DNA of 4,427 bases, taken from the IMG/VR virus record IMGVR_UViG_2706794677_000007. The stretch is one strand, 5' to 3'. The notes below the pieces were generated by a model. The model was not told the DNA's origin and ran no database searches. It saw nothing but the letters and a program-made list of their open reading frames with translations. Of the stretch, positions 1-4,427 are shown one piece after another (position 1 is the first letter of the stretch; each line of letters starts with the position of its first letter). The translations under genes and the position numbers were made by a program. The DNA is from a virus (lineage: Duplodnaviria; Heunggongvirae; Uroviricota; Caudoviricetes).

Positions 1-1
1 G

Positions 2-76
2 CTGTCGTTCTCAAAATCGGTGGAGCTGCATGACAAAGTCATCGGGCATTATCTGAACATAAAACACTATCAATAA
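2..76 (+). CDS. insB: IS1 transposase InsB, C-terminal fragment (5' end outside window); translates ...[24 protein letters not shown], stop TAA at 74-76
   Basis: Hand translation of frame 2 gives the characteristic InsB C-terminus and stops 15 bp before the IS1 terminus. Confidence 0.8.
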   Translation: MSFSKSVELHDKVIGHYLNIKHYQ

Positions 77-685
77 GTTGGAGTCATTACCTGCGCCCCC
101 CTGTGGAATGTAGTAATAACGTTCCATAACGCGGGCACGCCATATTTCCAGATTTTCAATATCTTCACCGTCTGTAATGGTGTCAGCGTACCCTGTGGAC
201 GGCAGACCACTGACGGGTGTTCCCAGTTGCATGGCAATACCATCATCCGTATTCCCCGCCGATCCCGGTTCGTCTGCCACAACAGGCACCCGGAGAAGAC
301 CATCGGCTGCGGTCACCGTCGCCGTCGTGGTAAAGGTCACCTGATTATCACGCTGGATCTGCGTTCCCGCTGGCAATACCGGCGTCCCCTCTACGCCATC
401 CCAGCGCACAAATCCCCGGGCTGCCACCGCTTCTTTTCGCGGGCAGCGTTTGATTCTGGCGTGCCGGTACAGCCAGTCTTCATCACACACGTCCGGTAAC
501 AGATTTCTGGCAAGATAATCGATATACCCGTACAACGTGTGTACGGCTGCAGCCTGTACACGGGCATACACTTCCGCATCCATACGACGAAGCAGCGTAT
601 CCTGCTCAAAGCGGGTTAATAAATCGCTCCGGATCATAGAAATAAGTTGCGGGAGGCCGGGGCGATAAAACTGACTGTCAGCCAT
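11..685 (-). pseudogene. Baseplate J-like protein (Mu gp47 family) interrupted by IS1. Native coding sequence is 92-685 (about 198 codons); the last about 26 codons (11-91) are read from the IS1 end and are not native.
   Basis: ORF-track protein begins MADSQFYRPGLPQLISMIRSDLL...YARVQAAAVHTLYGYIDYLARNLL, typical of baseplate J-like proteins. The ORF runs into IS1 at 91 and stops at 11-13 inside it. 224 aa is much shorter than typical baseplate J proteins (about 350 aa, from memory). SD-like GGAG sits 9 nt upstream of the ATG (685), and the start overlaps the gp46 stop (ATGGCTGA). Confidence 0.7.
69..91. repeat. IS1 terminal inverted repeat (IRR, about 23 bp) of the left copy
   Basis: Terminal sequence ...ATCAATAAGTTGGAGTCATTACC equals the IS1 right-end repeat; the extent of about 23 bp is from knowledge of IS1. 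Confidence 0.75.
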
Positions 686-1088
686 TCAGTTCACTCCAGA
701 TATCATCAAAAATAATGTTGTGAATATTGCCGTCACGCTGGTAAATGGTAATGGCAAGTGCCAGCGAGTCTGTCCCGGTCCGGACAGCGTTAATATCAAG
801 ACGGGAAGCAACACCATCCTCCACCATCCACGCCAGCGCCTCACGGACATAATCTCTGGCAAGCTGCGGGGTTTTATTTGTCAGCTTGCTGCGTCGCAAC
901 AGATACAAACGCGACCCCGTGCGATCATTCTGAACCGCAGGCCAGGTATCCCCCCACCATCCAAATATCCGTGGTGCATCATCACGCCCGGCACGCCGCC
1001 ATGTAAAAAGCGAAATAATCACAGCACGCGTCAGAAGGTCGATCGAAGCCCCGGTCGACACGGGTCGCCCGTTAACATTAATCATCAT
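678..1088 (-). CDS. Phage Mu gp46-family baseplate protein
   Basis: 136-aa protein with a GWWGD motif and overall resemblance to the phage GP46 family; sits between gp45 and gp47 homologs as in Mu. Start is 5 nt after the gp45 stop. Confidence 0.75.
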   Translation of the reverse strand: MMINVNGRPVSTGASIDLLTRAVIISLFTWRRAGRDDAPRIFGWWGDTWPAVQNDRTGSRLYLLRRSKLTNKTPQLARDYVREALAWMVEDGVASRLDINAVRTGTDSLALAITIYQRDGNIHNIIFDDIWSELNG

Positions 1089-1093
1089 GATTT

Positions 1094-1441
1094 TCAGCCC
1101 ATCGGTTGATCCGNNNNNNNNNNNNNNNNNNNNNNNNNNNNNNNNNNNNNNNNNNNNNNNNNNNNNNNNNNNNNTTCCCCACGTTTCAGTCCTTTCAGCC
1201 GGTAACGTCTGTCAGCCACGACCACAACCACACCATGAGAACGATCGCCCGCCGGAAATAAAGCAACGCCCTCAGCACCGTTCTGTGCGGCAGATGTAAA
1301 ACCATAAGGTTCAAGGTGCTCAACGTGTTGTTTCTGATCTCCGGCTATCATTTTCAACCCTACAGACTGACACTTTCTGGCGGAATCCACCGCCGTGATG
1401 ACAGCCCGGGAAATCAGATTACGAAGAGAAAACCCGTTCAT
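1094..1441 (-). CDS. Phage Mu gp45-like baseplate assembly protein V (spike), containing a 61-nt unresolved N block (1114-1174) that stays in frame
   Basis: Protein MNGFSLRNLISRAVITAVD...EHLEPYGFTSAAQNGAEGVALFPAGDRSHGVVVVVADRRYR resembles the gpV/gp45 family. Strong SD (GAGGAGGA) upstream of the ATG at 1441; start overlaps the P stop by 23 nt. Confidence 0.7.
   Translation of the reverse strand: MNGFSLRNLISRAVITAVDSARKCQSVGLKMIAGDQKQHVEHLEPYGFTSAAQNGAEGVALFPAGDRSHGVVVVVADRRYRLKGLKRGEXXXXXXXXXXXXXXXXXXXXXDQPMG
1114..1174. other. Run of 61 N (unresolved or masked bases) inside the gp45-like gene
   Basis: Literal n characters in the sequence. The flanking coding sequence is in the same frame on both sides, so the run appears to preserve true length. 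Confidence 0.95.
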
Positions 1442-2501
1442 CAGAAATCCTCCTCAACATTTTTTTCTTCCTGGCGGTAACAGGCTCGGGGAGATAAGCA
1501 TCTGCCGGGCCAACCCGTAATTCAGTCGTCGTGCCCCGGTCGTCCTGGTTATAGGTAACTTCTGCGATCACCAGTTCATCATTATCAAAATTATTCAGCG
1601 GGTCGAAAACGATGACAGATAACCCCGGACGCCATAACGCGCCACTGCCCTGCCGCCAGCCCTGAACCGTATATGTTGTCTCACGGGTAAGCGCAGCCCG
1701 TTGGCGCGCTTCAAATTCACAACGGGCCTTACAGGTTGCTGTCGTTGCTGTGCCTGACTGCTGAATCAACAAAGGGCGATAACGGGTCACGCCACTGTCC
1801 TGAATGGTCTGACGTATTGCGGCAATGGTGGCCTCACCAAAATCATCGTCGTTGCCCGGGCGCTGCCCACTGACCTGATATTCAGAAAACCGCTCTCTGA
1901 TGCTTCTTTCCGTGTCACAGGAAAGAATATTCTCTCCCAGCACCAGCACCAGCGCCGTCGCCGCTTTACCTGTTCCGGGTTTTCCCAGAACCAGTCGCCC
2001 GCATTCATCGTCATAAGCCAGCGTCTGAACCTGCCCCAGTAACCGGTTAAGACAATCGGCAACGGTTTCGCCGTGTTCCGGCTGGGCATCAATCACCGCT
2101 GTCTGCGGCACGCCAGCATCAACAACGGTGATGCCAAATGGCGCAGCCAGTTCACTGACTATTCTGAGCAGGTTTTTTCCGCTCTGCTGGAGTGGCAAAG
2201 CAGAGCAGTCAACCAGATCGGCTGTTTTGCTTCGCCCGACAATTCCCATGCTGACGCTGCTGGCGTCATAACGAAGCGGTAGTGCCTCCACATATCCGGT
2301 GAGCACAGGCTCATCCCCGATAAGCACTTCAACCAGCTCACCATTTTTTATCCGGGGTTGATAATCCCGGCTTCCGGGCCAGCGGGTGGTAATGGCAACA
2401 TTAAAATCCCGGGCAATACGGTTAATGCCCGCACTGATACGGACGGATGTCCAGCCGCCCCATTCGCGACCGGAAACCCGAAGTAAAACGGTATCATTCA
2501 T
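1419..2501 (-). CDS. P: Phage Mu P (gp44)-like baseplate hub / tail protein (P2 gpD family)
   Basis: 360-aa protein MNDTVLLRVSGREWGGWTSVRISAGINRIARDF... resembles Mu P / phage late control D family; lies immediately downstream of the N homolog with ATGA start/stop overlap at 2498-2501. Confidence 0.8.
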   Translation of the reverse strand: MNDTVLLRVSGREWGGWTSVRISAGINRIARDFNVAITTRWPGSRDYQPRIKNGELVEVLIGDEPVLTGYVEALPLRYDASSVSMGIVGRSKTADLVDCSALPLQQSGKNLLRIVSELAAPFGITVVDAGVPQTAVIDAQPEHGETVADCLNRLLGQVQTLAYDDECGRLVLGKPGTGKAATALVLVLGENILSCDTERSIRERFSEYQVSGQRPGNDDDFGEATIAAIRQTIQDSGVTRYRPLLIQQSGTATTATCKARCEFEARQRAALTRETTYTVQGWRQGSGALWRPGLSVIVFDPLNNFDNDELVIAEVTYNQDDRGTTTELRVGPADAYLPEPVTARKKKMLRRISDERVFSS

Positions 2502-3889
2502 CTGACGGGTACCCTTAATGCCCTGACCGGAACAAAGCCCGGATGAGAGATGGCATTTCGATCCAGGATATCAGTTTCACGGGACGCATCGTCGTACCAT
2601 GACGCAGCCAGAACAAGCGCAGGCAGAACTTCCGCTGGCGTTCGCTCTGCGGTTTCCTCCGTCTGAACCAGACGCGCCTGAATATCCCGGTTCAGTTCTG
2701 TACGTAATGACGTCAGCTGAAAAAACAGCCTGTCATCCGCCGTACGCCTGAGCTCCTGTTCAATCGCCGCGTTCAGCGATTTGCGTATGATGGTGAGATT
2801 TTCCCGCGTGGGTGGTTGCGCTCTCTCATCCTGTCCTGTGCTGGCTGCCACGCTGTCAAGTGCCGGATGAGAAACGTGAATAATATCGGACTGACGTTCA
2901 GTGGAACCACCAACAGCCACAACCGCCTGCTGATTTTTCACCAGGCTTCCGGGTTGTGGCAGTGAAGTGACCGCCCTTGTGGCTTCGCTGATTGCCGTCG
3001 TCCGGATGACAGCAGCCACAAGGTTTGTCTGCTGTTTTTGCCTGATAACCGATGCGGAATCTGTGGGCCACACCGCACGCGGTGCCAGTCCTGGGTCCAG
3101 CGTAATGCCGGACATTGTCGTTATGGACTGCACCAGATCCTGTGTGTTATCCACCAGCCGGGTTCCGGCCCGCCAGGTATCCTGCAACGTATGCACAAAA
3201 TCACTGGCAACCGACGGCGGCATCAGAATGACGGATAAATCGCCCTGCAGTAGTCTCGCTCCGGCAGAAACAGCCGAATTAACCATTTTGAAAGCTGTCT
3301 GAACGGTTCCCAGCATATCGGTCGTCCGGGCAATAACATCGTTCTGAATAAAGTCCGGTATTCCCGCGAGATCAAAATCGCCGAACATGTCTTCAATCAA
3401 CTCATCCAGGAATACGGACGACTCCTCCAGTTTTCTGGCGGTTGCAGCTCCGGCGACCGGAAATGACAGTTCCCCGCTCTCAACAAACTGAAATGAAACC
3501 CGGCACATACGGCCTTCAGTGCCGGAGTGAGAAACGGTCACCTGCCCGTCAATACAGCCCTGCATTTCACCGAACTGCGGATGGATCAGCGTCCCCGGCC
3601 CGGCGGTTTCAATCGCTGTAATCAGCCTGTCGCGCTGCTCTGCGTAATCATCACCAACGAGATACGCATTAATCGTCAGCCGTCGCGTGGCACGCCCGAG
3701 ATCTTCCGTGTACGGTTTGTCACGGTTTGGGTATTCATGGACCTGAACGCGGCGTCCGAACGAACCCTCGTCGCTCTCCACCGAAAACGGAACGCCACGA
3801 AATGAAGCGTCGTAAAGATTATCGCGCCAATTGATACCTGAAGATGCAGAAAAGAGTGAAGAAAGAGAAGGTAAAGAAGGTAAGTCCAT
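2498..3889 (-). CDS. N: Phage Mu N (gp43)-like DNA circulation protein
   Basis: 463-aa protein MDLPSLPSLSSLFSASSGINWRDNLYDASFRGVPFSVESDEGSFGRRVQVHEYPNRDKPYTEDLGRA... resembles the Mu DNA circulation protein family. SD GGAG (3895-3898, minus strand) 5 nt upstream of the ATG; N-P-gp45-gp46-gp47 order matches Mu. Confidence 0.8.
   Translation of the reverse strand: MDLPSLPSLSSLFSASSGINWRDNLYDASFRGVPFSVESDEGSFGRRVQVHEYPNRDKPYTEDLGRATRRLTINAYLVGDDYAEQRDRLITAIETAGPGTLIHPQFGEMQGCIDGQVTVSHSGTEGRMCRVSFQFVESGELSFPVAGAATARKLEESSVFLDELIEDMFGDFDLAGIPDFIQNDVIARTTDMLGTVQTAFKMVNSAVSAGARLLQGDLSVILMPPSVASDFVHTLQDTWRAGTRLVDNTQDLVQSITTMSGITLDPGLAPRAVWPTDSASVIRQKQQTNLVAAVIRTTAISEATRAVTSLPQPGSLVKNQQAVVAVGGSTERQSDIIHVSHPALDSVAASTGQDERAQPPTRENLTIIRKSLNAAIEQELRRTADDRLFFQLTSLRTELNRDIQARLVQTEETAERTPAEVLPALVLAASWYDDASRETDILDRNAISHPGFVPVRALRVPVR
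3866..3883. repeat. Perfect 9-bp tandem duplication (AGAAGGTAA x2 on plus strand; TTACCTTCT x2 on coding strand) encoding LPS-LPS at the N-terminus of the N homolog
   Basis: Read directly from 3866-3874 and 3875-3883. Confidence 0.8.
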
Positions 3890-3894
3890 ACTGT

Positions 3895-3898
3895 CTCC
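3895..3898 (-). promoter_or_regulatory. Shine-Dalgarno sequence (GGAG) for the N homolog
   Basis: Minus strand reads ...TTTTTTTATAGTGGAGACAGTATG. Confidence 0.6.
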
Positions 3899-3903
3899 AC
3901 TAT

Positions 3904-3927
3904 AAAAAAACCGCCAATTTCTGGCGG
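3904..3927 (-). terminator. Rho-independent terminator downstream of the AT-rich ORF and immediately upstream of N
   Basis: Stem 3911-3916 (CCGCCA) pairs with 3922-3927 (TGGCGG), 5-nt loop; on the minus strand the hairpin is followed by T7 (plus-strand A-run 3904-3910). Confidence 0.7.
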
Positions 3928-3935
3928 CTTATATA

Positions 3936-4331
3936 TTAATCATCATTAATATCTTTCATATTCAATTTGCAATTTTCGTAGGTCACTCCCGACTCGCCAT
4001 TAACATTAACTCCAGCTCTGATATTCCCGTTTTCTTTTACATCTACAAAAAACTGGCCTCTTGGCATCTTGAACGCAAATGTAAAACCAACAGTATCTGA
4101 ATCAAAATCATCATCTTTATATATTGGGATCAAAAATGTCATCGTCGCTGGTGATGCATTGTTTGCAAAATCAAATACACCTATACTTTTGCCGAATTCA
4201 TAAGAAGCTTTTCTCAATATAATCGCACCGCTGGCAGAAGGGGATGGGCACGATATCCTCAGTTGTCTGAATCCATCTGTATCCAAGTCAACGTCATTAT
4301 CTGCAGATGTTTTAACGGGTAATGACTCCAA
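3936..4331 (-). CDS. AT-rich ORF of unknown function (131 codons as drawn). Probably the 3' part of a gene whose 5' end was removed by IS1: the TTG start and first 4 codons lie inside the IS1 end, and the non-IS1 reading frame begins at 4317.
   Basis: Long open frame in a region of about one-third GC (hand counts 22/60 and 17/60 on sampled lines, versus about 31/60 in the one tail-gene line counted). Ends at TAA 3936-3938 just before the terminator. No convincing SD before TTG 4329-4331 or the internal ATG. No recognisable family from the protein sequence. Confidence 0.4.
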   Translation of the reverse strand: MESLPVKTSADNDVDLDTDGFRQLRISCPSPSASGAIILRKASYEFGKSIGVFDFANNASPATMTFLIPIYKDDDFDSDTVGFTFAFKMPRGQFFVDVKENGNIRAGVNVNGESGVTYENCKLNMKDINDD

Positions 4332-4340
4332 CTTATTGAT
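4318..4340. repeat. IS1 terminal inverted repeat (IRR, about 23 bp) of the right, inverted copy
   Basis: Reverse complement of 69-91. Confidence 0.75.
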
Positions 4341-4427
4341 AGTGTTTTATGTTCAGATAATGCCCGATGACTTTGTCATGCAGCTCCACCGATTTTGAGA
4401 ACGACAGCGACTTCCGTCCCAGCCGTG
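4333..4427 (-). CDS. insB: IS1 transposase InsB, C-terminal fragment of the right (inverted) copy; 5' end outside window; stop TAA at 4333-4335
   Basis: Minus strand translates ...[30 protein letters not shown]. Positions 4409-4427 continue the IS1 sequence (CACGGCTGGGACGGAAGTC on the minus strand). Confidence 0.8.

Follow-up and report, generated by a model that had tools for sequence, protein, structure and literature searches.

The 4,427-nucleotide stretch analysed here, hereafter the window (IMG/VR virus record IMGVR_UViG_2706794677_000007, Caudoviricetes), carries phage baseplate genes between two inverted ends of the insertion sequence (IS) IS1. A previous sequence-only reading had interpreted this arrangement as an IS1 composite transposon with inverted arms or, equally, as a segment able to invert by recombination between the two IS1 copies. 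We have compared the locus with complete bacterial genomes to ask how the two IS1 copies came to bracket the baseplate genes.

The two arms, at positions 1-91 and 4318-4408, form an inverted pair of 91 nt that is 100% complementary in a repeat scan of the window, as the sequence-only reading had claimed. Such a repeat is far beyond chance: the runner-up inverted pair in the window is only 19 nt long at 84%, and all the remaining ones are imperfect and at most 19 nt long. The length of 91 nt is set by the start of the window, since the right arm continues as IS1 up to position 4427 (110 nt). Position 91 is the end of the motif GTTGGAGTCATTACC, and the reverse complement of GTTGGAGTCATTACC opens at 4318. 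The left arm (1-91, plus strand) is the last 91 bp of an IS1 copy, with the 3' end of insB and its inverted repeat right (IRR) end at 91, and the right arm (4318-4427, minus strand) is the last 110 bp of another, with its IRR end at 4318. The insB stop codon, a TAA at positions 74-76, lies 15 bp from the terminus at 91 and its reading frame was confirmed. The IRR ends of both copies, and with them the 3' ends of insB, face inward, again in agreement with the earlier description.

In complete genomes, both arms belong to whole IS1 elements of 768 bp that differ from each other by 0-1 mismatch. We evaluated them against the features that define IS1, i.e., a length of about 768 bp, imperfect inverted repeats of about 23 bp at the termini, insA and insB' frames and a 9-bp (in some cases 8-bp) target duplication. 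The full copies encode InsA (PF03811 and PF12759) and InsB' (PF03400, DDE_Tnp_IS1, E = 7e-74), 18 of the first 23 positions match between their two ends, and their sequence is 100% identical to that of elements on Shigella sonnei plasmids that carry the annotation 'IS1-like element IS1A family transposase'. Every defining feature that we tested was present, and these elements are bona fide IS1. The assignment of the window ends to the right end of IS1, previously proposed from the letters of the window, is thus confirmed by the full copies, by Pfam and by existing annotation.

To read the junctions that the window does not contain, 21 distinct complete or long assemblies were compared by script for the four junctions, strand and gene order. 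Related loci were retrieved by an exact-sequence lookup of the open reading frame (ORF) formed by the fusion of the baseplate gene gp47 with IS1, which returned 226 collection blocks, and 26 contigs, including HE616528.1, were read. The segment between the two IS1 copies (the cargo) is identical to that of S. sonnei complete genomes, except for a gap of N and the copy number of a variable number tandem repeat (VNTR). The left IS1 copy interrupts gp47 and the right one an AT-rich ORF. In complete genomes the gp47 site reads ...cagggtc, TGCGCCCCC, IS1, TGCGCCCCC, ctgtgg..., and the site in the AT-rich ORF reads ...cagat, GTTTTAACG, IS1, GTTTTAACG, ttacta... The inner copies of these two 9-bp target-site duplications are visible in the window at positions 92-100 (TGCGCCCCC) and 4309-4317 (GTTTTAACG), and the same 9-mer as at 92-100 is found directly outside the left IS1 in S. 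sonnei 53G. In Escherichia coli FDAARGOS_944, neither site is occupied and each 9-mer is present once. The duplication check proposed by the sequence-only reading therefore goes against both of its interpretations: each copy has its own, unswapped 9-bp duplication.

The outer flanks are equally informative. In 20 of the 21 assemblies, S. sonnei 53G among them, the order is outer flank, IS1 of 768 bp, cargo of 4406-4424 bp, IS1 of 768 bp and outer flank, and all four junctions are native. The IS1 in gp47 is followed on its outer side by the remainder of gp47 (Baseplate_J_C), by gp48 and by the tail-fibre genes; on the outer side of the right IS1, the AT-rich ORF is represented by its first ~34 codons, next to which come the genes for tape measure, tail tube and sheath. 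The outer flanks are thus the collinear remainder of the same phiP27-like prophage, with the gene order of the FDAARGOS_944 prophage and of intact phiP27, and the break in either target gene coincides exactly with the IS1 ends. Extension to full IS1 copies and their flanks, which had been suggested as a check, accordingly yields two 768-bp elements with collinear prophage outside. Because each IS1 has its own unswapped 9-bp duplication, because none surrounds the whole unit and because the outer flanks are collinear, we conclude with great confidence that the locus results from two simple insertions of IS1, independent of each other, into a prophage decaying in place.

A pair of inverted IS1 copies around a segment formally has the architecture of a compound transposon, and the two full, near-identical inverted copies around 4.4 kb could in themselves indicate a Tn1681-type element that transposed in one piece and thereby introduced the baseplate genes here. 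Two IS1 copies do bracket the cargo; however, no duplication was found around the whole IS1-cargo-IS1 unit in the complete genomes, the outer ends of which carry two different 9-mers, one for each IS1. Moreover, cargo and flanking prophage genes are collinear, the two target genes are interrupted precisely at the ends of IS1, and neither a foreign origin nor multiple contexts of the cargo were observed. All 20 carrying assemblies have the unit at one and the same genomic location, with no second one, and none of the 72,556 plasmids of PLSDB carries the cargo, the only signal being 3-4% coverage by distant gp46 homologues. We regard a move as a unit as extremely improbable, and the absence of a shared outer duplication, the exact gene splits and the ancestral context of the cargo exclude a compound-transposition origin of the locus.

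The 768-bp inverted repeats, with 0-1 mismatch and 4.4 kb apart, could also have served in another way, as such repeats are a competent substrate for RecA. Two independent insertions could then have been followed by inversion of the cargo through homologous recombination, either fixed or as a frequent switch, and larger IS-associated rearrangements near the locus do differ between strains. Nevertheless, each 9-mer is repeated at the inner side of its own IS1 and the complete genomes show no swapped duplications, the cargo genes still run on the same strand and in the same sequence as the rest of the tail operon, and no inverted isomer was detected among the 20 long assemblies with both IS1 copies, so that neither signature of an invertible segment (both orientations, or swapped duplications) was seen. 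A fixed inversion is excluded by the unswapped duplications and by the undisturbed tail operon, in strand as in gene order; overall, we consider inversion after insertion very improbable. Of the previous composite or invertible interpretation, the inverted-IS1 architecture around Mu-type baseplate genes therefore stands, while the mobile or flipped unit does not.

The two IS1 copies do not form an obligate unit, as the remaining assembly, CP022672.1, keeps only the one in gp47. In this genome, an IS5-like element and a 448-bp deletion replace the right IS1 and most of the AT-rich ORF (8791-9987 of the locus). Among E. coli RefSeq complete genomes, 48 contain the cargo with at least 80% coverage and no best match crosses either IS1 junction. 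The insertions thus appear to be specific to the S. sonnei lineage represented by the assemblies compared.

Both ends of the window lie within the repeat and there is an N gap in between, two features that could raise the suspicion of an assembly foldback or chimera, with only one IS1 copy, or none, being real. Complete genomes from several independent sequencing projects resolve two full IS1 copies at exactly these junctions, and a foldback artefact, to which we would assign a negligible probability, is excluded. The breaks themselves are a recurrent feature of short-read data. The N protein of the cargo is indexed in 3271 collection blocks, and the longest contig that carries it measures 2-5 kb in 3132 of them; for gpP, this is the case in 1443 of 1509 blocks. 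In short-read assemblies of the lineage, breaks recur reproducibly at these two IS1 copies and leave this very contig, which is why the window ends in IS1. The statement that the window had been cut at the IS1 copies is in this sense correct, as the contig ends inside each of them.

The proximity of the two copies is not surprising either. S. sonnei 53G harbours 165 IS1 copies in 4.99 Mb (PMC7373316). With random placement, the chance that the next IS1 lies within 4.4 kb is 0.136, and one expects ~22 such close pairs per genome, of which ~11 are inverted and ~6 have their IRR ends facing inward. IS expansion, pseudogenization and strain-to-strain variation of S. sonnei have been documented at the population scale (Hawkey et al., 2020; PMC7373316). 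The locus is an ordinary, already known outcome of this IS1 expansion; it adds one more case of prophage decay via IS1 insertion and opens no new question. It also calls for some caution, in that IS-rich genomes such as those of Shigella routinely give short-read contigs that start and end in IS copies. An inverted-IS1 bracket on such a contig is expected from assembly and chance proximity and is no evidence for a compound transposon.

The following scenario, in which we have great confidence, would account for all these features. The window would be a short-read contig from S. sonnei or a near-identical strain and correspond to the baseplate region of a phiP27-like prophage that is defective and integrated beside ssrA/smpB. 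The resident and massively expanded IS1 would have hit this prophage twice, independently and by simple transposition, one copy entering gp47 at codon 198 and the other entering a putative moron, the AT-rich ORF between tape measure and N, at ~codon 34. Each insertion would have generated its own 9-bp duplication, the opposite orientation and the spacing of 4.4 kb being happenstance. An assembler that could not resolve the 768-bp repeat would then have stopped the contig shortly inside each copy, thereby producing the 91-nt terminal 'perfect inverted repeat', and the segment between the copies would still be in its original place and orientation. The IS1 identity, target duplications, empty sites, collinearity and recurrence in many assemblies are established. 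We infer that the outer flanks are the same in the genome from which the window derives, and that both contig ends reflect breaks in the assembly.

Several points weigh against this scenario. The outer flanks of the window itself are not visible, and what we say about its source genome is drawn from other assemblies of identical sequence. The exact pattern of the left junction has no match in the GTDB species-representative genomes, presumably because S. sonnei does not count as a species of its own in that set. Consensus assemblies cannot show low-frequency inversion or excision within a culture. Finally, base-by-base inspection covered the displayed loci, and further similar places exist.

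One may wonder if the IS1 pair is live in S. sonnei populations, either as a compound transposon carrying N-P-gp45-gp46 to plasmids or other sites or as a segment that flips appreciably. Any two IS1 copies can in principle mobilize the DNA between them, and a live unit would escape notice in short reads, which cannot bridge IS1. We nevertheless judge such activity very unlikely, and nothing in our data supports a latent capacity of the cargo to move or flip. If it did exist, the cargo would still be a non-functional baseplate fragment, with gp47 broken and the head genes mostly gone.

Comparison with known systems is consistent with two independent simple insertions. The two elements share with the simple insertions of the Shigella IS1 expansion (IS1A type) the same 768 bp, InsA and InsB', the imperfect ends, the 9-bp duplication and the inactivation of genes. 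They show no difference of substance from these insertions and are simply a pair 4.4 kb apart in opposite orientation. The classical compound transposons Tn9 and Tn1681 carry direct IS1 copies and inverted IS1 copies around a heat-stable enterotoxin gene, respectively. As in these transposons, two IS1 copies bracket a few kilobases of unrelated DNA, and they are inverted as in Tn1681. In contrast to Tn9 and Tn1681, the locus has no whole-unit duplication, no second location and no plasmid copy, and its cargo sits in its ancestral context. The locus therefore resembles compound transposons in architecture, with no evidence of ever having moved as a unit.

The closest phage counterpart is the Stx2e phage phiP27 (NC_003356, genes L48-L52), which is 96.7% identical at the nucleotide level over positions 92-3893 of the window and has the same N-P-gp45-gp46-gp47 gene order. 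It contains no IS1, and also lacks the AT-rich ORF and its terminator, tape measure and N being 15 bp apart in this phage. Unlike phiP27, the S. sonnei copy has decayed to a remnant that contains several IS elements and lacks most head genes.

The cargo genes, all on the minus strand, follow the order N, P, gp45, gp46 and gp47 with matching families in both Pfam and PHROG, and together constitute a Mu-type baseplate module. The gpN-like 'DNA circularisation' or baseplate hub protein (463 aa) is encoded at 2498-3889 (PF07157, DNA_circ_N, E = 3e-36; phrog_184) and the gpP baseplate hub protein (360 aa) at 1419-2501 (PF21683, PF22255 and PF21929; phrog_177). The gene for gp45, the baseplate assembly protein V or spike protein, occupies 1094-1441 and is interrupted by a run of N, its N-terminal part matching PF06890 (E = 4.9e-27). 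The gp46 baseplate wedge protein (136 aa) follows at 678-1088 (PF07409, E = 4.5e-33; phrog_180). The last gene, gp47 (Baseplate_J), is cut by IS1 and covers codons 1-198 of 360 at 92-685 (PF04865, E = 3.5e-24; phrog_2103 and phrog_6). Its open frame extends into IS1 to position 11, so that the gp47-IS1 fusion ORF spans positions 11-685 of the window; the C-terminal part of gp47 (Baseplate_J_C) is located past the IS1 in complete genomes.

The run of 61 N at positions 1114-1174 stands for 247 bp of gp45 that every related genome contains, the gp45 product being 177 aa long in complete genomes. The 186 bp missing at this place are a multiple of three, so the gp45 frame is kept and the ORF seems to read through. 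The run looks like an assembly or scaffold gap, or a mask. We also considered that it might hide something special and rejected this idea, as the 247 bp behind it, read from related loci, are plain gp45 coding sequence. The cargo had been described in the sequence-only reading as intact N-P-gp45-gp46 with a truncated gp47 and an AT-rich ORF. These identities are borne out by Pfam, but the window does not allow gp45 to be called intact, given that 61 N replace 247 bp; in addition, the last six residues of gpP are altered and IS1 truncates the AT-rich ORF as well.

The retained part of the AT-rich accessory ORF lies at 3936-4317 on the minus strand and corresponds to its 3' part (about codons 35-160). 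The right IS1 cuts the ORF at about codon 34 of 160, and its 5' part is lost from the window. Its GC content is 37%, as compared with 54% in the remaining cargo. The full 160-aa gene is present at 16030-16512 of the E. coli FDAARGOS_944 locus, between tape measure and N, and its product has a lipoprotein-like N-terminus (...LTSCC...). No Pfam family matched this ORF, the sole match being to a PHROG of unknown function (phrog_5586, E = 1e-88). An intrinsic-terminator-like hairpin with a T run is located directly after the ORF, at 3908-3930 on the minus strand. Its absence from phiP27, the lipoprotein-like N-terminus and the terminator-like hairpin of its own make this ORF look like a moron.

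Outside the bracketed segment, the head genes upstream of the sheath gene are reduced to a prohead-protease fragment in the S. sonnei loci. The tail-fibre end of the prophage adjoins the transfer-messenger RNA (tmRNA) gene ssrA, next to smpB (19480-19842 of one related locus; beyond 18100 in 53G and one other). An IS4 copy lies past rnfH and is followed by bamE/recN in 53G, versus raiA/pheL/pheA in other strains; on the other side, bamD-IS4 adjoins the prohead-protease fragment. These features indicate that IS4-associated rearrangements around the prophage differ between strains.

The closest IS1-free copy of the prophage is the one of E. coli FDAARGOS_944, the best match among E. coli RefSeq complete genomes. 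It is located near zinT/msrPQ and not beside ssrA. A frameshifted ipaH gene, encoding a type III secretion system (T3SS) effector, lies beside this prophage (5496-7137 of the locus), and the presence of ipaH suggests that FDAARGOS_944 is an enteroinvasive E. coli (EIEC)- or Shigella-like strain.

Two small differences were observed in gpP. Near the 3' end of the gene, at about 1453-1459, the coding strand of the window has a run of seven A, versus eight A in FDAARGOS_944. This shorter run shifts the last six codons, NVEEDF* becoming MLRRISDERVFSS*, and the gpP ORF overlaps gp45 by 23 nt owing to this homopolymer change. Further upstream in gpP, strain comparison revealed a hexamer VNTR, (CCAGCA)2, at positions 1937-1948. 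The number of repeats is two in the window, ranges from one to five among related assemblies (five in CP022672.1) and alters an (LV)n stretch of the protein. This repeat could serve for strain typing.

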